From the NCBI GenBank assembly GCA_050084515.1, contig CM114271.1:19096001-19160000 (forward strand): a stretch of DNA of 64,000 nt, written 5' to 3'. How positions within the stretch are numbered: the stretch's first letter is position 1; each line of letters begins with the position of its first letter. This DNA is from Blasia pusilla (taxonomy: Eukaryota). Under the pieces are notes generated by a model. It did not search any database and was not told the DNA's origin. It saw only the letters and a list, made by a program, of their open reading frames with translations. Below are positions 1 to 36,570 of the stretch, piece after piece. A program made the position numbers and the translations under genes.

Positions 1-203
1 CCATGGATATTCAACTTGGAGTAAGGTTAGAGGAGCAGATTAGTTTTGTATGATTGCATGCACATTTAAGGATCTGATTTCTTGGGTGCACTAATAGAGC
101 TAAGCGTTATTTCAAGAAAGATGATAGCATGTATATGGCCTTCCTATTACCATCTATATCAATGCTTAGGTTGTCATCGCCAATCCATGCATTGATATAG
201 ATA

Positions 204-1475
204 TGTGATACCCAAAATTTTGTACTTTTGAAGATTTACATCTTTTTATTCAAAGAAGATTTGTATATACACTGTGATTTTGATATTATGGTTGCGTAGT
301 AGAAGAATAAGTGAGATTAGAGTGAATCACGAAGCTCCAAGGACAAGGCAGAGAGATAGAAAATCAAGGATTTGCCTGAGAGGAGAGGAGAATACAATAA
401 CGAAGTCTAAAGACCCATCGTGAAGCTTGAAAAAGACAACGAAGCTCTATTAAGAAGTTGTGTATGAAGTGCTTCGGTCCTAAACGAAGCATGAAGAAGA
501 AGAAGAGAAAGAAGTACTTTGCTCTTGAACGAAGCACGAAGTACCAATGAAGAATGGAGCGCTTTGTCCTCAAAGGAAGAGCTTCGGAGATTCAGACTTC
601 AGAGCGGAGTGAAGCTAAGACTGCCAGTGATTTCAAGCCACACATAGTTAGAACAGTTAGAATAGGAAAAGACACAACTCTTTTTATCAGATGGATAGTT
701 ATGACAGTTTTGTTTCGCAGATTCATAGGGATCTTAGGAAAAGATAAGAGCACCATAGATCTAGGTAGTTACAAATATTTAAGAGACACCAACTTCATCA
801 AGACCACTTCGAATCTTTGGAACACTCCTACTTCAGAGAGTATTTAAGAAACATGAAAGTAGCTATCATCATCATTCTTTCACGAAGTCCTTATGCTGTA
901 GGAATGGTCCGAGCAAGGGAGTAGTACCCACTCAAGCTTGAATAACACTTTGAAGCTTTCTCATTCTTGATGGAGTAGTAAAGCACTCATTCCTTCATTT
1001 TGATGTGCGATGCGTATGTCTGAATATTCTTTTTGGGTCTGTAGAGTGAAGAGTGAATCAGGTGAACATTTCTCATCAATGGAATAATCAACATGGAGTT
1101 GTAGGAAATCTGTTTGACGGAGAGTAGCCTGCCGAGACGGATTGAATTCCGAAAGTAGGAGAAGCCAACTTTTGTGTTGAGGTCTCTGTGAGGTTTCTTG
1201 ATGTTGAGAGGAAATCTACCTGAGCGTGATGTCGGCTCCACTAGAGAGAATTGAGGAAAGGAATCTTGGTACTAAGAGAGATCCAACGACGTTGATAAGT
1301 CATTTAATCTAAATCATATACACTTAAATACAATTATTGCAAGAGAATTGTAATTTTGAACTCTCTTTCCACCAAAAAATGATCCTTTTGGGGATCGAAC
1401 TCATTAAATTACTGTAAAAAGATCAATCTGTTACTCATTGTACATTACATATAAGTGATAAAACTTTTTGGGTGC
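204..1475 (+). repeat. Left long terminal inverted repeat (~1272 bp)
   Basis: Reverse complement of 9137-10408 along its whole length. ORF-track peptides 364..573(-) and 987..1241(-) recur as 10039..10248(+) and 9371..9598(+). Confidence 0.95.
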
Positions 1476-1494
1476 AGCGGCCTTCACGTCAAAA

Positions 1495-1583
1495 AGTTCA
1501 AAATTACAATTCTCTTGCAATAATTGTATTGAAGTGTATATGATTTAGATTAAAGGACTTATCAACGTCATCGGATCTCTCTT
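1495..1583. repeat. 89-bp internal complementary repeat
   Basis: Direct copy of 9250-9338 and reverse complement of 1274-1362. Contains the stop codon of the extra 3' ORF. Confidence 0.9.
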
Positions 1584-3037
1584 GTTGAGCAGCTTCTGTT
1601 CTGCCTCCAAGACTGCGATCCTACCCGTAGCCTCCGACCACTGTGCCACTAAGTCTTTGTTTGTTTCTTGATGTTCTTGAAGCAACTTCAAAGAATAAGC
1701 ATGTTGTGTGGCCAATTTCTTGAACTCGTGGCTGATACGATGCACTTGGTGTCGGCATTTTTGAATCAATTGCAAAGCTTCCTTGACCTGCGAAGCTAAC
1801 TGATGAGCCCCACACTCCATGTTAATCGCCAAGCTCTCCCATTGGTGTGCTTTCCGTGCTTTGTACTGACTCTGGACCAAGTCGCTTTGAACTTTGCGAA
1901 GCGTCGTCTTAGTGTCTTCGAGTTCTTGATCCTGTAGCTGAAGGTTTGTTTCCGCCACTTTGCGCTGTGCTTCGTTCTCTGACGAAGCTTGGGCCCTACT
2001 GTTGAGGTCATCAAGCGCTTGTAAATACTGGTCCACCTCCGCTGTGTCTTCCAAGTGGAGAACTTGTTGTAGTTGATTCATGACCGGGACAACCAAATTC
2101 GAGAACCACACCATGTCGTTGGTTGTCTGGGACATGAGACGAAGAGCCGGACGGTGATTGCTAGCACGAGGCGTCTCGTCCAAGTCCTCTTGGGTTGCTG
2201 GCTCTGTTTCAGAGGGTGTTTCAAAATTGACTCGGCCGCGCTTCGGTCTTGGCAATTTGGTGAACTCCCCGTCCTTCTTTGAAGCCGAAGTATGTGGATG
2301 TTGCTTTGGGGCTGCTTCGCGCGGCGGGATCACTTCGCGGCTTCCACTAGTAACCGTTCCGCTCTTTCTTGGTAAGCAGACGGGAGTAACTTTTGACCAA
2401 TCCAACGCCTGCAATGAATATACAGATGGATTAAAAAAGGAGATAGGAAGGACTTTGTGCTCGGATGAAGTGCTTCCAGCATTGCGCGTACATGCCCATC
2501 CACAAAAGAAGCAAAGTCGACACCCGGTGCTTCGGGGTCCAGGTGTTGATTCCAAAGGATATAGCACATCTTGACGAGCTTATTTGTCAGGTAGTAAGAA
2601 CGAGCAGGATAAAACAAAGTCATCCAATGCTTGCAAAACTGTCCAAACAATGGCGGAGACAACGAAGTAGCCTTGTAGCCATTCCTGCCAAGGCGATCAG
2701 ACGCTATATAACCGAGTGCCAGCAAATCTTCATGCTTTACCAGAAATTTGGTGTCATACTCGTACTCCGGAATGGCCGGGAGCATATAAGTTGCTCGCCA
2801 GTCATCCGGTGTCCATTGTTGTAGCTGAGCTCGATACCAAAGACCCTTTCTTTGAAACTTGGCTGCTGTAGTCGAGGAACAAATCTCTCCGAGGAGTTCC
2901 CCGGACGTCAAGGTCCAATTTGCTTGAAAGAAAGTCGCCAAAGATTGCTCCTCAAGCGCTTCGACTAACTCTAGTGACAGCTTGACCAAATGAATGGCCG
3001 CACTTCGCAAAATAGGCGTAGAGTCTTCATGAGGCAT
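1545..3037 (-). pseudogene. Extra 3' ORF of the retroelement (globular N-terminus, low-complexity linker, C-terminal coiled coil), frameshifted near 2340-2400
   Basis: Overlapping ORFs 2330..3130 and 1545..2567 on the element's sense strand, downstream of integrase. Heptad-rich C-terminus (LQLQDQELEDTKTTLRKVQSDL). Confidence 0.65.
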
Positions 3038-3249
3038 GGTGGTAGGTCGATCTCGGTGAACACCCTGCTTCGGTATGCTATGCAACTTTGTGGTGACTCT
3101 GTCCATGGAAATATCCGCCCGGTTAAGCAAGGACGCTTATATAGTCCAAGCACTATGCGGGTTCTTGGTCTTGGCACTCGAACTGCAACAATCAGGTTGG
3201 CACTTTGCTCTTCAGCGAAGCTCAACCTGATTTTTCAGTCCGGGTAGGG

Positions 3250-6200
3250 TTGAGGCTCATGATACCGCCAAACATGCATCCCATTGACACAAGTTGGAAG
3301 TGCTTTGCCCTGTAAGGTCCTCAACTACAACGATCCGTTATCATATATGGCCAATACCCGGTAGGGTCCCATCCAGTTCAATTTTAACTTTCCGGGGAAC
3401 TTTATCTGACGGTTATCATACAATAGCACCAAGTCCCCAACGCTTATAGATTGCGGCCGGAGATGTCGATCGTATCGGTGCTTGCGTTTATTTTGCACAC
3501 GTTTGGTTTGGCGTAAAGCCAACGTGCGTGCTTCCTCCAACGCAACTAAGGTCTCATTCCTTCCGTGGAAAACCTCGGCGACCGCCTCCGTTCTTGTTCC
3601 TTCCAACACTTGATAAGTGGGCAGAGCCCATTCAATAGGTGTCAAGGGATGAACACCATAAGTCAGGAAGAACGGGGTATACTTTATAGTAACCTTCTCG
3701 GCTTTTTGGTATACCCACAATGTAGCGGAGATTTTCATATCCCAATCATAGGAATACGTAACTGTCAATCGATTCAATATCCGGCAATATGCGCGTGGCC
3801 ACCGCCTCCACCATCTTGGTACAATAGTCGGTAGCTATCAAAATATATTTTTGCCTTGTGTGGCGGGTAGCGGGTGAAATAGGGCCCACAAAGTCAATAC
3901 CCCATTTTTCAAAAGGAGCTAGCGGCATGATGGGTATCAAAGGCCACCTTGGGATAGCCGTTGGTCGACCTGCTCTTTGGCATGCATCACAACTTTGAAT
4001 AAAGTTACCTACATCTTTGTACATAGTTGGCCACTAGTAACGTGCGGCCAAGATTTTCTTAACGGTATTTTTAACAGCGTAGTGTCCACCAGAATCAGCC
4101 TCATGCATGGCTCTAATGATGTGGGGGATTTCTTCTGCTTCCAAGCATCGCCGATACTCTTCATCCGCACCTAATTTGAATAGTACCCCCTGACATATCT
4201 CATAGGATCCTATCTTATGTAAAAAGACTGCTCGTTCCTTTGCTCTGATAGGGGCGGGAAGTCATAGAGTAATTAAGAAACGTAAAATGTCTTCATAAAA
4301 GGATTGGTACAACCGGTCCTCCGTGATCTGGAACAGGTCTTCGTCGGGAAAGGTGTCATCCACGGATTGTGTGAGGTCCACGTTCGTCATCCTCAACCGG
4401 GAAAGAAAATCTACGTTGGTATGAACCTTGCCGGCATGGGTAATGACATCAAATATGAACTCTTGGAGTAACAAGATCCATCGCGCAATGCGACCTGACA
4501 GGTCCGCCTTAACCATTAATGGTCGGAGTGCAAAATGATCTACATGGAAGACAAACTCATACCCTAATAAATAATGACGAAACTTTTTGCACAAGAAGAC
4601 GATGCCTAATGCCTCTCATTCGGTAGTTGTATATTTCTGTTCAACTGAAGATAGTTACCAGCTTGCATAGTAAACCGGGAAATCATGTTTGTTCTCATCC
4701 AGTTGGCTGAGCACCACTCCAATGGCAAAGGAGGATGTGTCCACATATACGTGGAAGGGTTTGGTCCCATTGGGGGACCAAAGTACAAGAGCCTTTTGCA
4801 ATGCTTCCTTTAAGGCTTCAAATGCCGCTTGGTAGGGTGGGCTCCACTACCATTTGGTAGTTTTTTTAAGTAACGTGGTTAGGGCTCCTACTTTCACCGC
4901 ATAATCCCTAATAAACCGTCGGTAATATCTGACGTGTCCCAAGAACCCTCTCAATTCTCTAAGATTTGTGGGTGGTTCCAATGCGATGATAATATCCACT
5001 TTGGCCTTGTCGACTTCAATTCCTTGGGCCGACACTCTGTGCCCCAACAAAATCCCTTGTTTCATGGCAATATACGATTTTTCCGTATGGAAGGACAAAT
5101 GCACTTTGCGACAACGAGCGAGGGTCAATTCTAATTTTTCCAAGTGTTCGGCTTCTGTACTAAAGATACAAAAGTTTTCCATGAAAATTTCAACAAACTT
5201 CCACAGATACTCTTGGAAGATGGAGATCATCATCCGTTGGAAGGTGGCTGGCGCATTGCACAACCCAAAAGGCATCACACGATACGCGAAAGTTCCCAAG
5301 TCCGTGGTGAAAGTTGTGAGGGGCCGATCTTTTTCTCTTATGGATACATGGTTATAACCCAAGTATCCATCCAAAAAGATATAATGCTCGTGGCCAGCGA
5401 CTTTGTCCAAAATGCTGTCAGTGAAAGGTAAAGGGGTGATGGTCCTTTAAGGTGGCCGAATTCAATTTCCGATAATCTTGGCATACTTTGATTTTTCCCG
5501 TTTTTTTTTGGGTACAATTACAATGGGTGACACCCAGTCGCTACTTAACACAAGATAAATTATTCGTGCTCGAGACGCTGGTTGATTTCTTCCTTGATTA
5601 ACAATGAGTACTTCGGGTTGAGGTGATACTGCCTCATCCATACCGGGACCACACCTTCTTTTAGATCAATCCGGTGTTCACCATACTATGCTAGAATGCC
5701 TGTCATTTCATCCATGGAGTACGCAAACACATCCAAATACTCAAACAATAAGTTTTTATACTTAATGAGTTCAGTAGGAGATAAATTCGCTGAGAGGCGT
5801 AGAGACTTCTGACTTGTAATTAAGACCTGCACGTAGTCTTTTTCTTGAAACATATTTTCTATGAATAGGAATGTGCTATGACCTAGCTACTCTTCCTCCT
5901 GGGTCAACCTCTATTTGCTAGATACTGACTCTTCATCTATTTCATAGCATTCTAAATAGTACAAGTTAGACGAGGACTCAGTAGCTGTAGTCCCTCTTGA
6001 TCTGACGTATAGCCTTCATCCGTCGGTGGCGTTTCTCCTTGGGGTGGTCGTGATTTCCTCGACAGCTTGATGAGTCGTATGAGACCTGGTCCGGAGCCTG
6101 GAACGTGAACCGTCTCCTTATCCAGTCCGTAGTCACTCTCGCACCATAAAGCCAGGGTCTTCCAATAAGCAAGGGATAACCAGTGGCCGTTAAGGGCTGC

Positions 6201-6700
6201 AACACTAAGTAGTCCAATGGAAATAGCACTCCGCCGAGCATGGTCGGGATCTGAGTGAGCTGTCCGAGGGGTCGCTTCCAGGACTGGTCCGCGAACTGTA
6301 GATACTTGTCGGTGGGCTCGTACTTCGTGTATCCCAGTGCCCGGGCCGTCTGTTCTATGATAATGTTAATTCCACTTCCCGAGTCAATAGGGACCTTCTT
6401 AATGGTGTGTCCCTCAATCTCAACTTCGACCTTTGGGGCTCCCAAATCTTCCACTTCGATACAGAATAGATCCACTACCGGTAGACTCTTTGCGGACTTC
6501 TTGGGTTTTCTGCGGCTTATCTTCCACTATTGCAGAATTTTACCGTACATAGGGTTATCCATTAATAATTGCAGCAGGGTTATATTTGCGGGTGTTGATG
6601 CCAAGTCCCTGAGTAAGTCGTAGGCTTCCAAGACCAGAGGTGACGTCACGATGGCTTGTACTGCCGGAGCCATTCGGGTTCTCAAATTCTCTGTTGTCTG
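3250..6700 (-). pseudogene. pol: aspartic protease, RT, RNase H, integrase (stops and frameshifts)
   Basis: Protease IDSGSGINII (5978-6475). RT FLDGYLGYNHV and MPFGLCNAPATFQR with degenerate YxDD (FMEN) (4847-5410). RNase H KKFRHYLLG..VDHFAL (4262-4790). Integrase SCDACQR, WGIDFVGP and GPY motif (3325-4130). Confidence 0.92.
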
Positions 6701-7046
6701 CCTCCCTTCTAGCCCTTGGTTCTGGCGAACTTAAGCCCAAACATGGTCCTCGATATCCTGATGCAAGTACTTAGGGTGACTTTGATCGAAGGCAGGGTCA
6801 ACATCTCCTTTTAGAATGGCCTTCCGGACGCGGAAGGTGTCGACACTCTTTAGCTTTGCATGAAGATGAAGCGCCTATCTGAGTCTTGGTTTTCCCTCCA
6901 GTCTGGGTTTTGGACCTCGTGGTGACCGCGAGAGCTTCGTTTAGGAGTTTCGATGGCCACTCCGAGGAGTCTTCAGTTGCCGTCCCATCGGCCTCCTCTT
7001 CCCTAATGGTAACTTGTATTGCTTTAGGGGATACCAACTCCTCTAC

Positions 7047-8402
7047 TCAAACGAGCTGAACATTCACTTCATTTTTGGACTCTGTTGGTGCCGCTGGGGT
7101 AGTTACATACTTGACCAGAAACTGAGAAACCTTGGGCTCCGAGCACTCCACTGCAGTGTGCCCGCCTTTCTTACAATTTCTGCACAAGGGATTGAGTTCG
7201 ACAGGCCTCTTGGGGTTTGGGCAATTGTTGGCCCAATGGTTGGCCGCCCTGCAGTTATAACAACTGTTCTTTTTTATTGGCGGCGTGAAGGCCGCCGCAT
7301 CCATAATTTGTCTTAGGGGTTGTTGCTCCCTGTACTCCGGGGGTACATATCTCGGGATCCAACTTTGTCCTGAATTAGAGGTTGGCATGGCGTGGATTGC
7401 ATAACATCCTTCCCATTGGTCGGCTTCATACCACCCTTCTTCCGCCGTTGGTTCTTCCTAGATCCAACGTAAATCTCTTTGATTATGACATTCTTGAGCA
7501 GTATGCCCTTGGGTTCCACAGGCAGTACACCACACGTTGAGCCTCATCAGACCTCGTCGTCTTTTGGGGTCGTGCTGGGCCGCCAGACGTACTTTTAATT
7601 CCGCCATTTGTTTGCTTAACTCTTCAATGGCAGACTTGCCCGACCTCTTTGATGTCCCTCGTACTGGGTTGACAGACCCTCGAGCACCATGCTTGGTAGG
7701 CTTGTCTTTCCTTCCTCGCTTGAGAGTGCGGTGGCGTATATGTCGCTTCCGTTTGGATTTTAGGTCCTCTTCGGAGTCTGTGGACTCAATCGTGCCATCC
7801 GTGGAGGCTTCGGTGTCTATAGAGGACGCTTTGTCCTCGGAAGAAGAACTAGTTTGCAAAGAACCTCGTCATTGATGACGCCGTCTTCGCATTTTTTGGG
7901 ATTTCTCGGAGGCCTCGTATGCCTCTGTGGATGCTATGATTGTATCCAGGGAATCTCGTTGGCCTCGCCGATAGTACCGGTCTATTTCTTTGGACAGTCC
8001 CGACACAAACCAATCAACCAATTGTGAGGTAGTTGTGTGTTCAAGTTTTTTTACAAGGCTACGAAACCTTTGGGTGTATTCCCTGAGAGTTTCCTTCTTT
8101 TTACGTTTCAGATCGCGAAGCTTTGTCAGAAGCCTGTCCTCAAACTCCAGGTCCCAGAACTCATGAAGAAACACCTCCAATACCCTTTTCTAGGTTTCCG
8201 TGACATCCGCTCCCACACCCTCGTACCATTGGCTTGCTCACTTCTTAAGCAAGCCAAGAAAGACTTGCAGCAAATCCTCCTCTGAGCCTTCCCCATAAGC
8301 CTTAGCTACATGGGTAAATTCAAGCACAAAGTTGTCAACATCATCTCGCCGTCCCCTTGCAAATGTGGGGTATCTTAGCAATATCTTTCTAGTGTTGGCC
8401 AT
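7047..8402 (-). pseudogene. gag with three CCHC zinc knuckles (may extend upstream to ~9090)
   Basis: Capsid-like LRDLKRKKKETLREYTQRF..FVSGL. Knuckles CTACGTQGHTAQEC, CYNCRAANHWANNC and CRNCKKGGHTAVEC. Confidence 0.85.
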
Positions 8403-9124
8403 TGGGAAATTTCTGCTGCTGGGTCCCGAGCTTGATGCTTAGGAGGGAGGAGGCAGCGGTTCCGATCTGGTTGATTTGGTCGGCTCCTCGTCCCCCGAGT
8501 CCCCAAAGGCATTCCAGGTTGACTCTTTGTCCGACTACAAACTAGCAAGAGATGTGCCGGAGAGCATATTCTTGTCTCTCTTCTTGCTCTTGGGCTTTGT
8601 GTGAGGCCAAAGATTGGGAGACATCCCCGGCGGTCTCCAAGCCAGGGGATCTTCTTGTTTCTTATTGCGTCAATCAGCGAGCTGATCTCGGGATGAGGGC
8701 TGGGAGACTTCCATGAGTCCCTTCTGGGATTCGAGAGCTTGCTTCCGCACCCACGATTGCCATAAGGTAGGGGTCCATGGAGGGAAATTGGATCTTCCTA
8801 ATTCCTATAGGAATGTGCGGGTGCTCTTAATCTACCTGCCAGGTTTTCCTCCCATAAACAAAAGTACCGGGTCATCACCAAGTATAACTGACGCTCATGG
8901 GCACCGTTTGGCGACTGGTTCTTTGACAAAACTAATTAGTTGTTCTATCTTTTCTAGCACCAATGCAGCAAACTGGTTGTTATCTTCTTTCATTCATTGT
9001 CTTAGGGGGATAGCTAGATGGTCTTCAGTAAGAACTAGATGGTTGGGTCTTCTAGGAGACGAGGTTTCTTTCCCTACTCCTGGGTTCCCCATGTGTCTCT
9101 CTCCCTCTCCAGCAAAGCTTATGA

Positions 9125-9142
9125 TCCCCGGCAGCAGCACCA
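9125..9142 (-). promoter_or_regulatory. Primer-binding site, tRNA-Asp type
   Basis: - strand TGGTGCTGCTGCCGGGGA has 3 mismatches to the Athila-type tRNA-Asp PBS TGGCGCCGTTGCCGGGGA and sits at the inner edge of the right terminal repeat. Confidence 0.8.
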
Positions 9143-10408
9143 AAAAGTTTTATCACTCATATGTAATGTACAATGAGTAATAGAATTGATCTTTTTACAG
9201 TAATTTAATGAGTTCAATCCCCAAGAGGATCATTGTTTGATGGAAAGAGAGTTCAAAATTATAATTCTCTTGCAATAATTATATTTAAGTGTATATGATT
9301 TAGATTCAATGACTTATCAACGTCGTCGGATCTCTCTTAATACCAAGATTCCTTTCCTCAATTCTCTCTAATGGAGCTGACATCATGCTTAGGTAGATTT
9401 CCTCTCGACATCAAGAAACCTCACAGAGACCTCAACACAAAAGTTGGCTTCTCCTACTTTTGGAACTCAATCCGTCTTGGCAGGCTACTCTTTGTCAAAC
9501 AGATTTCCTACAACTCCATGTTGATTATTCCATTGATGAGAAAGGTTCGCCTGATTCACTCTTCACTCTACAGACCCAAAAAGAATACTCAGACATAAGC
9601 ATCGCACATCAGAATGAAGGAATGAGTGCTTTACTACTCCATCAAGAATGAAAAAGCTTCAAAGTGTTATGCAAGCTCGAGAGGGTACTACTCCCTTGCT
9701 TGGACCATTCCTACAGCATAAGGACTTCGTGAAAGAATGATGATGATAGCTACTTTCATGTTTCTTAAATACTCTCTGAAGTAGGAGTGTTCCAAAGATT
9801 GGAAGCGGTCTTGATGAAGCTAGTGTCTCTTCAACATTTGTAACTACCTAGATCTATGGTGCTCTTCTCTTTTCCTAAGATCCCTATGAATCCGCGGAAC
9901 AAAACTGTCATAACTACCTATCTTATACAAAGAGTTGCGCCTGTTTCTTTTCTAACTGTTCTAACTATGCGTCGCTTGAAATCACTGTCAATCTTAGCTT
10001 CGTTTTGCTGTGAAGTCTGAATCTCCGAAGCTCTCCCTTTGAGGATGAAGCGCTCCATTCTTCATTGGTACTTCATGCTTTGTTTAGGAGCGAAGTACTT
10101 CTTTCTCCTCTTCTTCTTCATGCTTTATTCAGGAGCGAAGCACTTCATACACAACTTCTTAATAGAGCTTTGTTGTCTTTTTCAAGCTTCACGCTGGGTC
10201 TTTAGACTTCGTTATTGTATTCTCCTCTCCTCTCAGGAAAATCCTTGATTTTCTATCTCTCTGCCTTGTCCTTGGAGCTTCCTGATTCCCTTGAATCTCA
10301 CTCATTCTTCTACTACGCAACCATAATATCAAAATCATAGTGTATATACAAATCTTCTTTGAATAAAAAGATGTAAATCTTCAAAAGTACAAAACTGTGG
10401 GTATCACA
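9137..10408 (-). repeat. Right long terminal inverted repeat (functional 5' LTR, ~1272 bp)
   Basis: Reverse complement of 204-1475. Followed on the - strand by the PBS and gag. Confidence 0.95.
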
Positions 10409-11032
10409 AGATAGTACTTCATGTATCAATTGATAGAGGTTTTGCAATGCCTCTCTTGGTCGTCAAAGAAGTACCATATCCTGTAGGCATCCGAGTTGAG
10501 GCTAGTCTTCACAAAAAAAAATTTACTACAAACCTATCACACATGTGGCCTAAGCATCCAAACATCTTGCTCCACAACCAACCATATCTTTGGAACACGT
10601 TCATCTCGTGCATACTAGTGTATGAGAATCCTTGTCTTTATGGCCAAATAAACAATCCATCAATAAGCACATCATATTCTCCTTAATGCGCATAGGATCT
10701 TATACTAGGGTGTTTATATAACACCCTAATTTCTTCAAGCATGTTGATATCGATGCTCCTATCTACGATGCAAACTCCCTCCCGTAGGGTGAGTAACTTC
10801 TTCACAAGCAACTTGAGCTACATTTATAATAGATGGCGAGTCATCTTTGGTCATGCGATGTGATGTGTATAACCCATGCACCATATTTGAGAAAAATGTA
10901 AAATGTTTGCTTAAGCAAATATATCACATGGAGATAAATGTGAGGTCTCATGCCAAAAAACATAAGGAATGTTAAACTTGTACATAGGATGATCAACCCC
11001 ATAATAAAAAAAAAACCCTTATTCATAGCAAG

Positions 11033-17019: not shown

Positions 17020-20000
17020 CATGGGGTAGAATTCGAAAGGGATTTGGGTGGAGTAGAAAACAAAGGCCGGCGATTTGATTTGGGAACTACAGTTTGGAAA
17101 ACTCTCGCTTAGGTAGGGACTCACGTCTCTGGAACCAAAACCTGAGTTCCAATTGATCATCCCTGTTATTTCAAGAACTGGATCTAGAAGGAAGCCGGGA
17201 AAGAGGCCTGCGATTTGATTTGGGAACTATAGCTTTGAATGCTCCCATTTGGGATCAGTTTGAACTTGAGTTCTAGTTGATCCTCATTATCATTTCGAGA
17301 ATTGGATCTCTAGTTCCAATAGTGAGGAATCGGATAAGGAGGCCCACGATCTCATTTGGGAACTACAGTTTCAAAAGAAGCCATTTGGGCTCAATTGAAC
17401 TGGAACCCGAGTTCCGATTTATCTTCCTTCTCATTTCAAGAACTAGATCTATATTTCCGATGGTGAGGTAGCAAGGAGAGTGGTCGAAAATTTGATTTGG
17501 GAACTACAGTTCCAAAAGTAGCTAGTTGGTTTCGATTAATCCTCCTTCTCATCTCGAGAACTAGATCTCTAGTTCCCATGGTGAGAAAGCCGGGAAGGAG
17601 GTCTACGATCTCTTTTGGGAACAACAATTCTGAATGCCCCCGTTTGGGCTCACTAATCATGTCAGGAACGGGAACCTGAGTTCGGATTGATCCTCCTCAT
17701 TTTGAGAACAGGATCTATACTTCCGATGGAGAGGTAGTGAAGAATGAGCCCGGCGATTTGATTTTAGAACTATGGTCCTGAAAGCCCTCGTTTAGGTAGG
17801 GACTCCCGTCTCTTGAATCGGAACCTGAGTTCCAATTGCTCATCCTTCTCATTTCGACAACTAGAACTAGAGTTCCGATGGTGAGGTAGTAAGGAAAGAG
17901 GACGAGGATTTGATTTGGGAACCGTTCCGGCTTTGTTGTCTAGTGTGGAACCGGAACGGGAGTTCTCATTGATCCTCCTTTTCAATTCGAGAACTAGATC
18001 TAGAGTTCTGATAGTGAGGTAGTAAGGAAAGAGGCAGATGATTTGATTTGGGAACTACACTTCCGAAAGACCTCATTCCGGGATGGACTCTCGTCTATGG
18101 AATCGGAACCTGAGTTCCGATTCATTCTCCTTCTAATTTTGAGAGTTGGATATGGAGGTACGATGGTGAGGAAGGTGGGAAGGAGGACGGCGATCTCATT
18201 TGGGAACTATAGTTCCGAAAGCATCTGTTCGGGCTCCGTTGTTGAGTGTGGAAGAGGAACTTGAGTTATGATTGATCCTCCTCATTTCAAGAACTAGATC
18301 TAGAGTTCTAATGATGAGGAAGTAAGGAAAGAGGCCGGCGATTTGATTTGGGAACTACACTTCCAAAAGACCTCATTCCGGGATGGACTCTCATCCATGG
18401 AACAAAAACCGGATTTTCGATTCATCTTGCTTCTAATTTTGAGAGCTTGATATAGAGTTCCCATGGTGAGGAAGCCACGAAGGAGGACAACGAACTCATT
18501 TGGGAACTACAGTTCTGAAAGTACCCATTCGGGCTCACTAGTTGTGTCTGGAACCGGAACCTGAGTTCCAATTCATCCTCCCTCTCATTTCGAGAACTAG
18601 ATGTAGAGTTCCGATGGTGAGGTAGTAAGGAAAGAGGTCCGCGATTTGATTTGGGAACTACACTTCTTAAAGACCTCATTCAAGGATGGACTCTCGTCTA
18701 TGAAACCAGAACCTGAGTTCTGATTGATTGTGCTTCTGATTTCGAGAGTTGGATGTAGAGTTCCGATGGTGAGGAAGCTGGGAAGGAGGACGGCGATCTC
18801 ATTGGGGAACTACAGTTCCGAAAGCAGCTAGTCAGGCTCCATTGTCGAGTGTGGAACCAGAACGTGAGTTTTGATTCATCCTTCTTCTCATTTTGAGAAG
18901 TGGATCTCTAGTTCCGATGGTGTGGAAGCCGGGAAGAAGGCCCGCAATCTCATTTAGGAACTATAGCTCCGGATGCCCCCATTCGGACTAAGTTATTTTT
19001 TCAGGAACTAGTATCTGAGTGCCAATTGATCCTTCTTCTCATTTTGAGAATGGGATCTCTAGTTCAGATAGTGAGGAATCTGATAAGGAGGCGTGCGATC
19101 TGATTTGGGAACTACAGTTCCGAAAGCAACCGTTTGGGTGCCATTGTTGAGTGTGGAACCGGAACCTTAGTTCTGATTGTTCCTCCTTCTCATTTTGAGA
19201 GCTAGATCTAGAGTTTCGATGGTGAGATAGTAAGGAACGAGGCCGGAGATTTGATTTGGGAAGTACAGTTCCGAAAGCCCTCGTTTAGGTAGGGACTCCC
19301 GTCTCTCGAACCGGAACCTATGTTGTGATTGATCCTCCTTCTCATTTCAAGAACTAGATCTAGAGTTCCGATGATGAGGTAGTAAGGAAAGAGGCCGGGG
19401 ATTTGATTTGGGAACTACACTTCCAAAAGATCTCATTCAAGGATGGACTCTCATCTATGGAACTAGAACCTAAGTTTGGATTGATCCTCCTTCTAATTTC
19501 AAGAGCTAGATATAGAGTTCTGATGGTGAGGAATCCAATAAAGAGGCCCGCGATCTCATTTGGGAACTACAGTTGTGAAAGGAGCCGTTCGGGCTTAGTT
19601 GTTGCTCTGCAACTGAAACCTAAGTTCTAATTGATCCTTCTTCTCATTCTAAGAATAGTATATGTAGTTCCAATATTGAGAAATCCGATAAGGAGTCCTG
19701 CGATCTCATTTGGGAACTACAAATCCAAAAGCAGCCATTGGGGCTCAATGGTTGCGTCTTGAATGAAAACCTGAGTTCCGATTGATCCTCCTTCTCTTTT
19801 TGAGAACTAGATCCATAATTTCCATTGTGAGGTAGCAGGCATAGAGGCCTGCGATTGGATTTGGGAACTCTGGTTCTGAAAGCACTGGTTTAGGTAGCCG
19901 TTCATTTCTAGATTCAGGGCTATCAAACTCATCCTAGATCCATACTTCCGGTACAATTGAATATATGGCTTTTATTGCGAGGCGGGAGATGTCATGCAGA

Positions 20001-27983: not shown

Positions 27984-28869
27984 TGTTGTATAGAAAAATC
28001 ATCCATTTTGTAAACTCCTCTATCATTAAGTGTTAGAGAGAGTTTTATTAGTATTAATTAAATGAGCTTAGGAAAATGAATATTCCATGTTTTAACCTCT
28101 TTAAGATGGCTCATTTGTGCGGGCTGAACTTAGGAAAGAAGTAATAAATAAAAGATGGGATTATAAAAGTAAAGTAGTGGGGTTAGTGCTTTAATGAAAG
28201 AAAAGCAAAAGTAGTCTTGGTTGGTGGTTAGAGTAATTGTAGTAGTTTAGAAGATATGAAGTGAGTAAAAGAGGATATTTTGGAAAAGATAAGAACTAAT
28301 CTCTTTGTGCCAAAATGTGATTGGCTAAGCCTTGAGAAGAAGTCATGTGGCACAAGATAAGATTAGACATATTTTCTACTCTTGTGGATCCCTTGTGAGT
28401 ATATAAAGAGAAGGGACCTTCACGCCAATCCATGGATTCCATGGAATCCTTATATAGCAATCCATGGACGTCAATAGGCCTGTTGTAACTCTCCAGCTCA
28501 CGGGACCACTCTAGAGTTGCTCAAAGGTAGAATGCCCTCAAGGCCTCTCCTCTTCCTTTATATACTTAGAGATAGGTACAATGAAGAAAAATTAGCTCTA
28601 CCTATCCTTATGCCATATGTCCTACTGTCATAGCATGAGAGGATCTCCTTTGGAGTGTAATGTCCCAACCTCATCTTTCTCAACCTCATCCTTATTTTCC
28701 TTTTTACCAACCTATGGCCCAACTCTTATCTTTATGTCATGTATCTTGTCGTTTCTCTTTTTGGTTGATTCTTTCCCACTTATGCGCTTCATGTCATAGA
28801 TTCTAACTTAACTATGACTAACAAAAGATGGTTACAAACCTCCCCCCATTTAAGACACAACGTCCTCGT

Positions 28870-30630
28870 TGTGAGAACTTTCAAACTCTTGCACTATTAG
28901 TGGTGCGTTCACCAAGTTGGCTGAGGGTTCCCATCTGGCCTCAAAATAGTGGATATCCTTTCCATTAGACCAAATATTCAACTCGTTGGTGATAAGCTCT
29001 CAAGTGCGTTTCTTCAAGATACATTCCACTTCAAATTCTTCATGATCTCCAACTATTTGAGATAGTGGTGGAGTGACAATATTGTCCTTAAATCTCTTAG
29101 GGCGTGGAATAAACGTTCGAAGAAGAGAGACATGAAACACATGATGGATTTTCATATGTATTGGTAGATCTAGCTTATACGCCACAACGCCCACTTTTTG
29201 TAGGATAATGAAAGGCCCAATATAGCAAGGATTAAGCTTACGAACTCCTACTAATGATAAATTGGTTGTTGTTAACCAAACCTTGTCCCCTTTAAAAAAC
29301 TTGACATCTCGACAATGAGCATCTACATGTTGTTTTTGTTGATTTTGGGCAATAGCCAACTTCTCCTTAGCAAGTTGAACCCCTTTTTGAATCTGGTCCA
29401 CAAACTCATTAACTGCAACTACCTTTGTAGGTTCCCTCAGACTTTTCCCTATTCGAGTGAGACTAGAAGGAATTGAGGGATGCTCGTCATGCATTAAAAA
29501 GAACGTTGTGATCTTAGTGGAAGAGTTCATAGAATTATTTTATGAGAACTCTACTAAGGGTGTCAATGAGTCCCATCCTTGTTGATCCTCCAATGTTAAG
29601 GCGCGTGGCATATCCTCAATGGTATGGTTGGCCCTTTTAGTTTGTCCATCAGTTTGAGGGTGATAAACCGTAGACATGGCTAGTTTAGTTTGGAGCAATC
29701 CGAATAAAGCCTTCCAAAATAAACTCGTGAAATGGATTTCGCTATCAATGATAAGCACTTTATGAAGACCATGATGGACAAAGACTGTCTCGATGTAGAT
29801 CCTAGCCAATTCTGGTGCAGTCACAATCTTCTTGGTTGGATGAAGGTGTATCATCTTGCTTAGTCTATCCATAAAGACCACAATAGAATCATATCCCGTG
29901 ATCGTACATGGTAGCTCACAAACAAGATCCATAATGACTTGTTCCCAACGTTTTTGAGGTATTGGGATCGGCTGCAACAATCCTGCTGGTTTTGTGTTAC
30001 TAGCCTTGATTTGTTGACAAATCCTACAACTCCTTACATATACGTCAACATCTTCTCTCATTTTGGGCCAATAGTATGCCCATTGTAATCCCTCTAAGGC
30101 TTTTTCAGCTCCCATATGACCCGCAATGACTGTGTCGTGAGCTTCAGACAATACTTCAGTGTGTAATTGTGGATCTTGTGGGATCCATATTTTACCTTTA
30201 TGGAAAACCAATCCTTGAGCCTTGTATACTCTATTGGCATGAATAGCAACTGCAATTTCTTCATCCTCCTTTGTGGCTTTTGGATAACTTTTTCCACCAA
30301 CTAGAGTGAACCTCCACTTCAGATATGTTATTCATCTGTCAAGACGTTTGCCAATTGCTTATTTTCTTCCACTTAGAAAATTTTCATCATGAATTGTTGT
30401 CGCCATTCTGCCCATCGAATTTGACGTTTGGAGAGCTCCTTTTTGGGACTCTAAGTAGACCAAGGGCTTGTGATCAATCTCCACCACAAACTCCTTATCG
30501 CTCAAGTAATGTTTCCAATGCTTGGTTGCCAACACAATAGCAAGTTCTTATCGCTCAATTGTATGGTAGTTTTGCGTAATGATTGAAAAGAAATCTCTTG
30601 TGATGTGCCCCAATTCCATTTTTGTCCTTT
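28870..30630 (-). pseudogene. RNase H C-terminus, integrase and chromodomain of the chromovirus
   Basis: HDTVIAGHMG..SCRICQ zinc finger, MDLV..YHPQTDGQT core, IGPF motif, and EEFEVECIL..EYLV.WKGY chromodomain. Confidence 0.9.
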
Positions 30631-30632
30631 CT

Positions 30633-30926
30633 TGTGATACCCACAATTTTGTACTCTTGAAGAATATATCTTTTTATTCAACGAAGACTCTTGTATATTA
30701 TGATTTTGATTATGATTATTTATTATTATGAAGAAGAATGAGTGAATCACGAAGCTCTTGGGACAAGGCAGAGAGATGGAAGATCAAGGATTTGCCTTAG
30801 AGGAGAGGAAAACACAATAACAAAGCTTAACGAAGCTCAACGAAGATGTACGAAGCTCTGTCTTTGAAGTGCTTCGCTACATAACGAAGCATCACGAAGA
30901 AAAGAAGAAAGAAGTACTTCGCTCTT
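30633..30926 (+). repeat. Diverged terminal fragment of the inverted-repeat family of 204-10408
   Basis: TGTGATACCCACAATTTTGTACT...GAGTGAATCACGAAGCTC..GGACAAGGCAGAGAGAT..GAAGTACTTCGCTCTT aligns with 204-526. Confidence 0.88.
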
Positions 30927-30929
30927 CCT

Positions 30930-32530
30930 TCAACTCGTCTCGTACCTCTGAATATTTTTTCAAACCACAAACATCTATTATTAAACCTAGGAAACATACA
31001 TCTTGATGTTTGATGGCGGTTTTTCCTATTATATATAGGAGTAGGGTTTTAAGACGTGATCTGATTCTATCTTTGTTAAGCTTCCATTGTCGGGTCTTCA
31101 TAATCTTTTTTCTCCAATTTACCTCTGGATTATATTGTTCCATCCAAGGCATTCCCAAGATAATATCATAACGTGCTAACCTAATGACCTTCATCTCCAA
31201 CTCTTCTAGATACTTTCCTATCCTCAACTCTACCCTTCGAGGAAGCTTCTCAATCTTTTCTGTTTGCCCGTCTGGTAATTTTACCTCTTCTTTTTGATCC
31301 CTCTCTAAAGCTAAGCCCAATTTCATGGTTATGGCTCTTGAAAGGAAGTTTTCTATTGCCCCAGGATCAATCAACACTCTAACTTGGGATCCTTTTACTT
31401 CCCCATCTATAACAATGAGACGTGTTTCTCCTCTCTTCAAACCATTTACCTCCATATGTTTGTGTCGACCCTCGACTTTCCTCCTTTTGTTAGAACCAGT
31501 ATATCCACGAGGCGCGATTATTGGTGGTTGGCGTTTCCCCGAGGTCCGCCTTCTTCGTCATCTTCCTGCATATGTTCTCCTTCAAGATGATTAAGGGGGC
31601 GACGATATGGCCTGTTTCCAAGCCTACAAAGATAAAAATTCATGGCTATATGACCATATCTACCACACTCAAAACATTGGCGTGTATCTCTTCAGACTTT
31701 GAATTCTCTCTCTCCTCTAGGAACCCCAACCCTATCGGTTTGAGGAGCAATCCCTTGTATGTTGGGGTCCGATCTCTCTCCATTGGCACCCTTCCATTAT
31801 ACCTTCCCGGCGCATAACTATCTCGTGCTCGAAGATTACCCAACTCCATGGGTGTGGGTCCGTAGTGGTTGTTCATGGAAGCAACCACCTCTCTTCCTCC
31901 TCCTTCGTACACATTTGCCATACGTTGGACACATACGATTGCTTCATTGATATCTTTTGGGTTGACTCGAATCACCTCTTTACATACCTTCCTCTTCAAA
32001 CCTCTCTTAAATAGATAGAGAGCTTCTGGCCCACTCATGTTGCGGATTTGTATCTGCAAGTCACGAAACTCTTTGATATAGTCCTCCATAGTGCCTTTTT
32101 GCTCCAATCACTATAATTTCATTCTAGCAGTGAGGATTGGATCCACAACTTGGAAATTTTGCAACTGCCCTTGCTTCAGTCCGCTCCATGTAATTTGTTG
32201 AATTGTTTCAATCAAGGATCTCTCGCGTCCTTGGTACCATTTCAATGCTTGATCGATTAACCAAGATCTTACAAACATTCCTGAAATATGATTATCAATG
32301 TTGAAAAGGGATAAATGGATTTCCATCCGAGTCATCCAACCCTCTAATCAAATGCAACTCTCAACTTCTTTTGTACGGTTCTACTTTGGATGCCTTTGTC
32401 ATTTTCAATATCAATGATGCTTGAGCATTTATCTCCATCTCTCTTTGTGTTGCTTGGGCCTCCAATGCTCGTGCCCTTAAGGTTTCGTCACTCTCCCCAG
32501 AAGTCACGACACTCGTGGTTTCTGTCTCCA
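30930..32530 (-). pseudogene. gag and protease of the chromovirus
   Basis: EQKGTMEDYIKEF..FKRGL and GPTPMELG (gag); VLIDPGAIENF..YDIILGMPW (protease). Confidence 0.88.
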
Positions 32531-32725
32531 TCCCACTTATCGTAAGAACTCTCTCTCTCTCTCTCTACTCTCATGTTTTTGACCGAAGCAACTACTTGCA
32601 CTAATTCCTGGACTTGGTTTTAACTTTGATCAAATGCAACTCTCAACTCTCTCAATTCACGAATCATATCCCTCAAAGTTTCTTCCATGATCGCTCCGAC
32701 TTTCCCCTGACCCTTTACTATCACT

Positions 32726-33158
32726 CTAATATAAGATCAAGATATACACCTGCCAATTTTGCACAATAGGGACTACAAAAGGCAATGTTGACGCAATGAC
32801 TTCATCATAATACTCTTGGCCAAACTTCCTCACCATAAACTCTCTATATGCTATCTTAGGTTCACAAACCACATGGACTATACATGGAGTGTTTAAAAAT
32901 ACTTGTGGGGGCTTATCCAAATCCATTCCCCATATCTCCTCTAAAACAATATATAAATAGTGCAATCCCACACACGATCATATGTAACAATAGGGAGGAT
33001 CATCGGATAGCGAGACTCCATCACTTCGTCATGAAAACTTCACCAAAGTGATGTACGAGATATCTCGTGAATCAGTGTCTATCTACATATAAAAGTTTGA
33101 TGGTGAACGGATTAAGAAACGGAAAATTAGGAGCCACTCTCGCTCCCCCTCCATCCAT
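32726..33158 (-). pseudogene. Tandem small ORFs A (33158-32941, disrupted) and B (32926-32726, 66 aa) in the chromovirus leader
   Basis: Collinear protein similarity to 55804-56022 and 56029-56229, with matching lengths and stop positions. Confidence 0.75.
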
Positions 33159-34909
33159 TACCTGCAAAATAGCCCTTCCCTCTTACTTTACTTGCAGCTC
33201 TATAGCCACTGCCAGCTTGTAACAACCTATCTACTCTAAACAATATATCATTACTTGGTCATCCTTCCAAGAGGGATAATCCACTCTCGTTGGAAGAGCA
33301 ACCTTGATGTGATACCATTGTAACTCTCCAACTCACGGAACCACCCTAGAGTTTCTCAAAGGTAAAATGCCCTCAAGGCCTCTCCTCTTCCTTTATATAC
33401 TTAGAGATAGGTACAATGAAGACAAATTAGCTCTACCTATCCTTATGCCACATGTCCAACTCTCATGGCATGAAAGGATCTCCTTTGGAGTCTAATGTCC
33501 CAACCTCATCTTCCTCAACCTCATCCTTATTTTCCTTTTTACCAACCTATGACCCCACTCTCATCTTTATCTCATGTAACTTGTCTTTTCTCTTTTTGGT
33601 TGATTCTTTCCCACTTATGCGCTTCATGTCATAGATTCTAACTTAACTATGACTAACAAAATATGGTTACACCTGCTTGAGTAGAGTTTAACACTAGTTA
33701 TGCTATTTTCCTTGTGTACAAATGTAAAGCTGTTTAGAAGGGCTTCATAGTTAGGAATTTCGGGGTTCCATGTTATGAAGAAGTGATCGCCTTTGCAACA
33801 CCATTCGTGATTTCTATCATGAGAGAATGGAGGGTTTACATAATAATTCTATACTTAAAAAAGAAAACCTCTTACAGAGTTTGACTTGCATCAACCACGT
33901 CTGTTGCAGCTAGAAGGTCCGCCCTTACTCAAAGAAAGACTCTCGACACGAGAGCGTACCAAATCTTCTTTGACTCCAAGGCGTGAGTTGTGGTGGATAA
34001 CGTATTCCACTTTTCCATCAAAGGGAATGATCTCCAACAACCACCGGAATAGTGCTTGTTGGTGATGGGGCAAGAAGTTGCATGTTTTTTCCTTGACGAG
34101 TACGGCCTGCACGAATTGAAGCATCACTTTTTTGGTTACAGCATCGCTATAGCTAAGGACTAGGATATAGACCTTTGCAGTTTGGACGAGGAGTATGAGA
34201 AGAAGAATTTTGATAAGTTCCAAGCTATCTACGAGACCCTAAAGCAAGATCTCCACATTGATTTCACAAGGATTGTTTTGACTCCAAGGGAGGGAAGGTT
34301 TAGTTGGAGTAACTTCGCCAAAGGACTCAATACGTATATCCATGAGGTTCAAAAGGAGATTACCGACCTTGCCACGGATGAGACACTCTTGCAATTGAGT
34401 AGGAAGATACCTCACCGAGGGTAATAGGTAGCTGAAATGATAGTGTATTTTGATGCCATTGGGTACATTTGTAAATAGAACGTGAAATGTAGCATATTGA
34501 AGCAGATGGATTAAGGAAGTATGTTGCCCAAGTTTGAGCCGGTTGATGTCACAGATTTAGCAACGCATAAGACTCTCCTCTGATTGGAAATATCTTGCCT
34601 ACACTTATAAATTCTCTGGTACTAGATATTTATAGTCATGTACAGCGAGAATTATAACATATTGTAGAGAATGGAAGCTAAGATTGCAAGAATTGTAACA
34701 TATTGCAGAAAGTGGAAGCTAAAGATTCTGAATCCATGTGATTTTCGGGGATTTTTTTAGCATCCCGAATTGGAACTTGAGTTCCAAATCTTATATATTC
34801 AAAGAGCACATTTACCGTCATCTAATGATCGTACGATGGACTTTCTTATGTGATATGTGTGTACAATTTCTTCTTGTAGAGCTTGCATCCTCAACGTTGC
34901 CATCCTCTA

Positions 34910-36570
34910 ATCGATTGGAAATGTAGTTCCAATCAGCCTGCTCCTAAGATCCCAACGTCGGAAAAAATATAGAATTGGAACTTTGGTTCTAATTGTGTCC
35001 CAAATTTCCGCGCCTGCTGAATGTCATTTGGAGCCATACTTGGACTAAGACCGATTGGATCCTAAGATCCAACTCCGACCATAGAAGGCGTCTATAAAAG
35101 GGAATTCCCCATCCTCCATTGGAACTATAGTTCTGAATGGCATCCTCCTAATATTCCTACGTATGAGACAAATATAGAATCGAAACCTAATTGTGTCCCA
35201 AACTGCCACGCCCTCCGAAGGTCATTTGGAGCCATGCTTGGACTAAGTCCAAATGGATCCTTAGATCAATTCCAGCCGCAGAAGGCAACCCGTAAAGGGA
35301 AATGCCCATCCTTGATTGGAACTGTAGTTCCGGATGGACTGCTCCTAACATTCCTATGTCTGAGACAAATATAGAATTGGAACCTAAGTTTTGAATTATG
35401 TCCCAAAATGCCGCGCCCATTGAACGTCATTTGGAGCAAAACTTAGTGTGAGTCCAATTGGATCCTAAAATCCAATTCCGGCTGTAGAAGGTGTCCAGTA
35501 AAGGGAAATCCCCATCCTCCATTGGAACTGTAGTTCTGAATGGCGTGCTCCTAAGATCCCTATCTATTAAGAAAATATAGAATCGAAACCTAAGTTTTGA
35601 ATTGTGTCTCAAAAAGCCGCGCCCGATCAACGTTATCTCGAGCCATACTTGGTCTAAGTCCAATTGGATCCGATGATCTAATTTTGGTTGCAGAAGGCGT
35701 CCAGTAAAGGGAAATCCCCATCCTCCATTGGAACTATAGCTCCGAATGGCCTGCTCCTAAGATTCCTATGTGTTCAGCAAATATAGAATCGGCACCTAAG
35801 TTATGAATTGTGTCTCAAAGTGCCCCGCCTGGTGAACGTTATCTCGAGCCATATTTGGTCTAAGTCCAATTAGATCCTAAGATCCAATTCTAGCCGCAGA
35901 AGGCGTCCGATAAAGGGAAATCTCCATCCACGATTGGACATGTAGTTCCGAATGGCCTCCTACTAAGATCCCTATGTGTTCAAAAATGTAGAATCAGAAC
36001 CTAATCTGTGAATTTTGTCCCAAACTTCCGCGCCCGCTGAACATCATCTCGAGCCATATTTGGTCCAAGTCCAATTGGATCCTAAGATCCAATTTTGGCC
36101 GAAAAAAAGGCGTCCGGTAAAGAGAAATCCCCATCCTTGATTGGAACTATAGTTCCGAATGCCCTGCTCCTAAGATCCCTATGTGTTCAGCAAATAGAGA
36201 ATCGGAACCTAAGCTCTCAATTGTGTCTGAAAGTGCCACGCCCTTTGAAAGTCATTTGGATCCATACTTTGTCTCAATCAAATTGGATCCTTAGATCCAA
36301 TTCTGGCCGTAGAGGGCGTCCAGTAAAGGGAAATCTCCATCCTTGGTTGGAACTGTAGTTCCGAACGGCCTTCTCCCAAGATCGCAATGGGTCGACAACA
36401 AATGTAGTTCCAAGCTCATTTGGAACTAGCGTTCCGAATGCTTTTGCTTGGCACTCGATGGGAGCTTTTCCGGGGCCGAACCAGCACATTCTACTATCAA
36501 CTTCATTGCTATCTCGAGCGGTAGAAACCAAATACTTTCGAGTTCATTTGGAACTAGAGTTCCAAACGCC
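34910..36570. repeat. Tandem satellite with a ~206-bp unit, about 7-8 copies
   Basis: ATTGGAACTRTAGTTCCGAATGGC recurs at ~35521, 35727, 35933, 36140 and 36346. Confidence 0.92.

Follow-up and report, generated by a model that had tools for sequence, protein, structure and literature searches.

The Athila/Calypso group of Ty3/gypsy retrotransposons (ATHILA, FIDEL, Diaspora) combines the order gag, protease, reverse transcriptase, RNase H and integrase (gag-PR-RT-RH-INT) with long terminal repeats (LTRs) of more than 1.2 kb, a primer binding site (PBS) of the tRNA-Asp type, a long post-pol region with open reading frames (ORFs) and a 5-bp target-site duplication (TSD). All of these features recur in an element of ~10.2 kb at positions 204-10408 of a 64,000-nucleotide stretch of the Blasia pusilla genome (assembly GCA_050084515.1, contig CM114271.1, positions 19,096,001 to 19,160,000 of the forward strand; this whole stretch is referred to as the window). 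Unlike the members of that group, however, this element has its second LTR inverted and accompanied by a copy of the PBS, with no polypurine tract (PPT) abutting an LTR and no CA immediately before the PBS. We favour, with slightly more than even confidence, the reading that it is one dead copy of a repetitive Athila/Calypso-like Ty3/gypsy family which was probably born rearranged, as an aberrant cDNA with two U3 ends that integrase inserted once. Most likely it records a one-off replication accident, cleanly inserted, rather than a new kind of element.

Among described systems, the closest parallel comes from Sabot and Schulman 2007 (PMC1950507), who ascribe complex LTR-retrotransposon insertions, direct three-LTR arrays with TSDs, to template switching. 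The likeness lies in several LTRs that are abnormally arranged, enclosed by a single TSD and explained by a single aberrant-cDNA integration, and the present locus likewise has an abnormal LTR layout, with matching outer LTRs, within one TSD; the difference is that those complexes are direct (LTR-internal-LTR-internal-LTR) with normal U3/U5 outer ends, whereas at our locus the additional LTR is inverted, which leaves a U3 end on either side. DIRS elements share with our locus the inverted terminal repeats around gag, RT and RH as well as an internal repeat-related piece. According to the part of the DIRS literature covered here, they employ a tyrosine recombinase and generate no TSD, while this element retains integrase remnants (Integrase_H2C2 and the start of the rve core) and a 5-bp duplication, so that the defining DIRS traits are absent; no recombinase domain was detected among the 18 scanned ORFs of at least 100 aa. 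Furthermore, the DIRS internal region complements the repeat tips, whereas the internal piece found here corresponds to LTR positions ~1071-1159 and not to the tips. A third likeness is provided by defective proviruses of HIV, in which LTR asymmetry and inversions have been attributed to reverse transcription (PMC9278108); these are one-off strand-transfer errors that were still integrated, but the consulted sections of that source describe no provirus in which one end bears an LTR and PBS in full inversion. The literature searched, judged by titles and abstracts, yielded no gypsy element that combines a TSD with inverted LTRs; its papers on inverted LTRs concern DIRS, yeast Ty pairs and others. 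We file the element as an aberrant single-integration product, not as a new element class.

Its outer and inner boundaries comprise the following features:

199-203, unstranded: left AGATA flank, candidate TSD (read from the sequence).
204-1468, plus strand: left arm, a full LTR copy with a short pre-PBS stretch; the LTR sense is on the plus strand, inverted relative to the element (repeat finder, blastn).
1469-1482, plus strand: copy of the first ~13 PBS nucleotides, TGGGTGCAGCGGCC, with one extra G; the homology to the right arm stops here (arm alignment).
1483-1494, unstranded: 12-nt filler.
1495-1583, minus strand: 89-nt piece of the LTR, direct with respect to the element and equal to 9250-9338 (repeat finder, alignment).
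9124-9142, minus strand: PBS of the tRNA-Asp type, TGGTGCTGCTGCCGGGGAT (match to a published PBS).
9143-10408, minus strand: the element's 5' LTR (repeat finder, blastn).
10409-10413, unstranded: right AGATA flank (read from the sequence).

The first-pass annotation of this DNA had described the two terminal repeats as reverse complements, and this description is borne out by one blastn alignment of 204-1482 with 10408-9130 (93.28% identity over 1280 columns) as well as by a repeat finder, which returned the inverted pairs 204-1427/9185-10408 (1224 nt, 93%) and 1427-1471/9140-9184. The direct orientation of two LTRs that is typical of Ty3/gypsy elements is thus lacking, the 89-nt piece being the sole direct part of an LTR. 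A global alignment of the arms gives 1194 matches, 59 transitions, 25 transversions and 2 gap columns (Kimura two-parameter distance, K2P, 0.069), and 28 of the 84 arm substitutions have CpG in one arm. At the rice LTR rate this K2P distance suggests an age of a few million years, provided that the arms were identical at insertion. As the minus strand carries every retroelement domain, the right arm is the 5' LTR; the LTR measures 1266 nt. The annotation was also correct in that both outer ends carry the same terminus, TGTGATACCC, at 204-213 and, as its complement, at 10399-10408, and that identical AGATA flanks adjoin them. The duplication is of exactly 5 bp, the size characteristic of plant Ty3/gypsy elements, since the neighbouring bases differ; equality of two random 5-mers drawn from the window has a chance probability of p = 0.0012 (~1 in 825). 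Taken together, the identical termini and the flank match support a single integration, and the most economical reading of them is one integrase-type insertion with two U3-type ends. When the flanks were joined in silico (203 fused to 10409), no ORF ran across the joint, and the two flanks displayed no significant similarity to each other (scores of 17-18 for a shuffle mean of 19.2). At 152-202 the left flank also holds a short palindromic stretch, imperfect at 78% over its 51 nt, that ends at AGATA.

The inner boundary of the left arm is the most informative part of the structure. The PBS agrees with the tRNA-Asp PBS of FIDEL at 16 of 19 positions (PMC2844528, Table 1) and contains the 13-nt ATHILA PBS core, as given in the published excerpt, with three changes (C/T at three sites); no tRNA genes were detected in the 64-kb window. 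Homology between the arms continues past the LTR through GG(G)TGC(A/T)GC(G/T)GCC and then ends. Since the left arm takes in ~13 nt of PBS sequence, it represents another 5' LTR together with its PBS and not a flipped 3' LTR, which would carry no PBS. This 13-mer is also the core of the ATHILA PBS as published. Beyond it lies the filler, of which no second copy exists within the window, and then the 89-nt piece, which is joined straight to a post-pol ORF. The presence of this piece contradicts the earlier statement that no U3 follows the last ORF. Together with 1274-1362 it is predicted to fold into a hairpin with an 89-bp stem and a 132-nt loop (-92.5 kcal/mol, z -17.5). Of the 4 sites within the piece where the arms differ, 3 read as in the left arm and 1 as in the right arm, and the piece has 3 private changes; this pattern, in which the numbers are small, appears roughly star-like and would fit an origin of all three copies at about one time. 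Two further features of the annotation hold, namely that the inner repeat ends lack a CA and that no PPT adjoins an LTR start. Indeed, the CA nearest to the PBS lies ~20 nt upstream, and GTGATA occurs in the pre-PBS stretch, oriented like the start of the LTR, so that this copy shows no evident U5 attachment end of the normal kind; a purine-rich 16-mer sits 9 nt before the direct piece.

We infer from this anatomy that the rearrangement would have preceded integration. During reverse transcription, or shortly after it, a DNA strand may have switched onto a plus-sense template consisting of an LTR plus PBS and copied that template as far as LTR base 1, where it ends. This would produce a linear cDNA with the 5' LTR and PBS at both ends, in inverted orientation, and with TATCACA at both 3' termini; it is through these two U3 ends that integrase would have inserted the molecule, with AGATA as the usual 5-bp duplication. 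Lacking a PPT, a sense 3' R and a 3' LTR, such a product could not have replicated further, and subsequent decay would have brought the arms to their ~7% divergence. The composition of the left arm (an LTR plus ~13 nt of PBS, with its outward end exactly at LTR base 1) is that expected from run-off copying on a plus strand. Integrase-mediated insertion is reported to require no more than ~20 nt at a U3 or U5 end (PMC7240061), and the complex insertions (PMC1950507) and defective HIV proviruses (PMC9278108) mentioned above serve as precedents for reverse-transcription accidents that became integrated. A simple flip of a 3' LTR, or an inversion between LTRs, was rejected as it can neither place LTR base 1 at both flanks nor add a PBS; homologous recombination between inverted elements (which restores canonical elements) and autointegration (which yields circles) were likewise rejected.

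The 89-nt piece may also preserve a landmark of reverse transcription. We tentatively place the start of R near 9250-9252 on account of three observations: (i) a border between classes of sequencing reads, (ii) a TATA-like TAAATATAATTA at 9276-9287, 26-37 nt upstream of 9250, and (iii) the description of the first-strand transfer in a review, by which R/U5 of one RNA is joined to U3 of another. The direct piece ends at 9250, not more than 3 nt from this putative U3/R border, and its junction would thus coincide with a reverse-transcription landmark. As to the read classes, the interval 9210-9252 is shared with two large ones, of which one matches from 9210 upward only (162 reads) and the other up to 9252 only (160 reads). 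The LTR appears to be a mosaic relative to the family, at least two more abundant LTR types having just these 43 nt in common with it.

These reads come from the DNA run X11, sampled at ~1 read in 100, which yielded 4414 matched reads. With respect to this copy, 32 of them are at least 99% alike, 475 are 95-99% alike and 3907 are 90-95% alike, and the depth of ~10-45 over the interior rises to ~300 over 9283-9639; identities and depth together point to a repetitive, old family. Downstream in the element, 66 family reads diverge from this copy immediately left of 3332, 5 nt ahead of the stop that closes the integrase frame, and the stretch 2857-3331 is rare in family reads, with the depth over 2857-3213 at ~6 vs. 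20-45 around it. Joints and loose ends of reads are considered here among those listed (522 further loose ends fall outside): the joints do not include 203 to 10409, 1494/1495 or 1583/1584, and the loose ends do not include 204, 1471, 9141 or 10408. In the run X1, a contig of 205 nt equals 7615-7818 with zero differences, and a contig of 254 nt matches from 204 onward, beginning at its own letter 81, which fits another copy with an LTR starting at the same base in a different flank. The RNA run X14 contributed 51 matched reads, mostly partial over 715-1071, in which no transcript start or end could be read; they probably derive from a related transcribed sequence elsewhere. Within this interval the X14 reads run into unlike sequence at 721, 775, 841 and 1068. 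The exact 21-mer of the LTR start was found 0 times in metagenome contigs and 0 times in viral contigs.

The interior reads, in the sense of the element, as follows:

7047-8189, minus strand: gag remnants, with Retrotrans_gag at 7869-8189 (E 3.5e-8) and zf-CCHC zinc knuckles at 7047-7457 (Pfam).
5978-6526, minus strand: weak aspartic protease (Pfam, E 0.013, below cutoff) with a DSG motif recognized by eye.
4847-5446, minus strand: reverse transcriptase, RVT_1 (Pfam, E 2.9e-17).
4262-4846, minus strand: RNase H in two frames, RT_RNaseH_2 at 4655-4846 (E 8.5e-17) and RT_RNaseH at 4262-4615 (Pfam).
3325-4261, minus strand: integrase remnants in three frames, comprising H2C2, the first ~40 core positions and a GPY-type C-terminal stretch recognized by eye, with the middle of the core missing (ORFs, Pfam).
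2330-3136, minus strand: second orphan post-pol ORF of 268 aa, in another frame (ORF list).
1548-2579, minus strand: orphan post-pol ORF of 344 aa, coiled-coil-like, its last 12 codons (1548-1583) supplied by the LTR piece (ORF list).

The annotation's gag-PR-RT-RH-INT interior with a DDE/GPY integrase is upheld in its domain order, which by Pfam is that of Ty3/gypsy elements (gag, zinc knuckle, protease, RT, RNase H and integrase, all on the minus strand, the protease and rve matches falling below the Pfam cutoffs), and in its GPY-type stretch, but not in its catalytic core. Integrase_H2C2 is recognized at 3746-4033 on the minus strand (E 9.8e-7), and the rve match (E 0.029) covers only profile positions 3-42 of 102, so that no complete DDE is present. 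The ORF list shows pol split across many frames with stops. Without a PPT, a sense 3' R and a complete integrase, this copy cannot be a working design; it is old, broken and dead. The post-pol sequence of ~1.7 kb holds the two long ORFs, and neither of them (1545-2579 and 2330-3136) matches a Pfam family, the ATHILA-specific one included, in which respect the element is unlike ATHILA. Protein atlas scores of at most 0.78 were obtained for both, with no relatives. For the 344-aa product, there was no match among 1003 candidates, and its C-terminal 101 aa, spanning the junction of the ORF with the LTR piece, had no match to the 1 candidate; a single weak coiled-coil HMMER match (E 1.1e-5) to a 2189-aa protein is limited to residues 279-340, and 0 of 55 pattern matches to a post-pol ORF in metagenomes were confirmed. 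Thus, PBS type, LTR length and the long post-pol region speak for an Athila/Calypso-like assignment, made by features rather than by a tree, while an ATHILA-specific or env-like post-pol protein is missing.

Elsewhere in the window, a second Ty3/gypsy element occupies 28483-33671 on the minus strand, with direct LTRs of 354 bp (28483-28836/33318-33671, 94%) and with capsid, protease, integrase H2C2 and SH3 domains but no RT. Between its protease and its integrase, at 30633-30926, sits a fragment that is 75% alike to the first ~320 nt of the LTR studied here and starts exactly at TGTGATACCC; the sequence upstream of this fragment is pyrimidine-rich, with no PPT. Dispersed repeats flank the LTRs of this neighbour (27981-28422/55047-55478, 83%; 33672-33951/56044-56314, 78%). 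The window also contains two tandem arrays, at 17064-19897 (151-bp period with a 303-bp higher order, ~13 copies, 71-73% matches) and at 34911-36407 (206-bp period, ~7 copies, 79% matches).

Several observations weigh against the history of one aberrant cDNA. It needs at least one extra event, as the direct piece comprises only LTR positions ~1071-1159 and meets the interior without a PPT or the remaining U3; the 12-nt filler is unexplained; and the PBS copy amounts to only 13 nt, while plus-strand strong-stop DNA usually carries 18 nt of PBS. The positions of the transcription start and of R are deduced, none of the 51 RNA reads being informative; no second example was found, and the junctions are known from the assembly alone. 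This copy has other rearrangements (the missing integrase core, the family break at 3332, the rarely covered 2857-3213), which together with the insertion and deletion in the neighbouring element suggest that post-insertion scrambling is common here. A different origin, which we regard as possible although doubtful, would involve two convergent insertions of the same family, followed by an illegitimate deletion that took away almost all of the left element past its PBS and, from the right element, the 3' end. Break repair would have used the LTR 132 nt away as the template for the filler and the 89-nt piece, and AGATA would match by chance. Deletions and nested fragments are indeed encountered in the window, both in this copy (no middle of the integrase core, 66 reads diverging at 3332) and at 28483-33671, where a related LTR fragment from base 1 occupies the place of the RT. 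The agreement of the 89-nt piece with the nearby left arm at 3 of 4 sites and its snap-back hairpin resemble templated filler, and the arm identity (93%) is no higher than that of most family reads (3907 of 4414 X11 reads at 90-95%). Nevertheless, two insertions with a deletion would require the 5-bp coincidence (~1 in 825), two same-family insertions close together and a deletion that happened to leave about one element's worth of interior, and they would leave unexplained why the piece ends within 3 nt of a read-class boundary.

A misjoining of different LTR copies by the assembly, at 1483-1494 or at 1583/1584, appears highly improbable: in its favour are the repetitive nature of the family, junctions that lack homology support and the fact that only 32 of the 4414 X11 reads are at least 99% alike, but with a 6.7% difference the arms are no fold-back duplicate of a single molecule, matching 5-bp flanks at exact LTR termini are not what a chance misjoin would yield, and the exact 205-nt X1 contig over 7615-7818 places the interior of this copy, at least, in independent data. 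To the proposal of the first-pass annotation that an Athila-like gypsy sub-lineage regularly makes and integrates cDNA with two U3 ends (an inverted LTR plus PBS) by non-canonical reverse transcription, this copy being one decayed member, we give the lowest probability of all. Its attractions are the absence of a CA for ~20 nt before the PBS together with GTGATA there in the LTR-start sense, the absence, among the read joints listed, of any interior-to-LTR-start joint in direct orientation, and the fact that inverted LTRs would escape standard finders. However, the inner junction, with its PBS copy, 12-nt filler and partial 89-nt LTR piece, looks accidental; a transcript from the right LTR would have neither a terminal R repeat nor a PPT, and the integrase is broken, its core truncated; downstream of 3332 the copy differs from most family reads (66 reads). 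Published Athila/Calypso-group elements with this PBS type, as far as the consulted sources describe them, have direct LTRs, a PPT and 5-bp TSDs. A gap of up to ~9 nt between the LTR end and the PBS is normal in this group, as in FIDEL (LTR 1-1531, PBS at 1541), so that a distant CA is unusual but not unheard of, although ~20 nt would be long. The LTR read depth, several-fold higher than that of the interior (~300 vs. ~30 in the deepest bin), hints at solo LTRs, which need direct repeats, with LTR segments of sister families as an alternative cause. Of that proposal, then, the single insertion with two U3-type ends is retained as the most economical reading, while the lineage-wide replication scheme is not.

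Overall, the general picture of gypsy replication is unchanged by this locus. If the reading of a single integration is true, it would provide a natural record of a plant gypsy integrase inserting cDNA via two U3 ends, and would imply that reverse-transcription accidents yield inverted-LTR insertions in addition to the known direct three-LTR complexes. Copies of this kind are invisible to tools that seek direct LTR pairs, and they create inverted repeats, here of 1.3 kb and 7.7 kb apart, that are capable of folding back or recombining.

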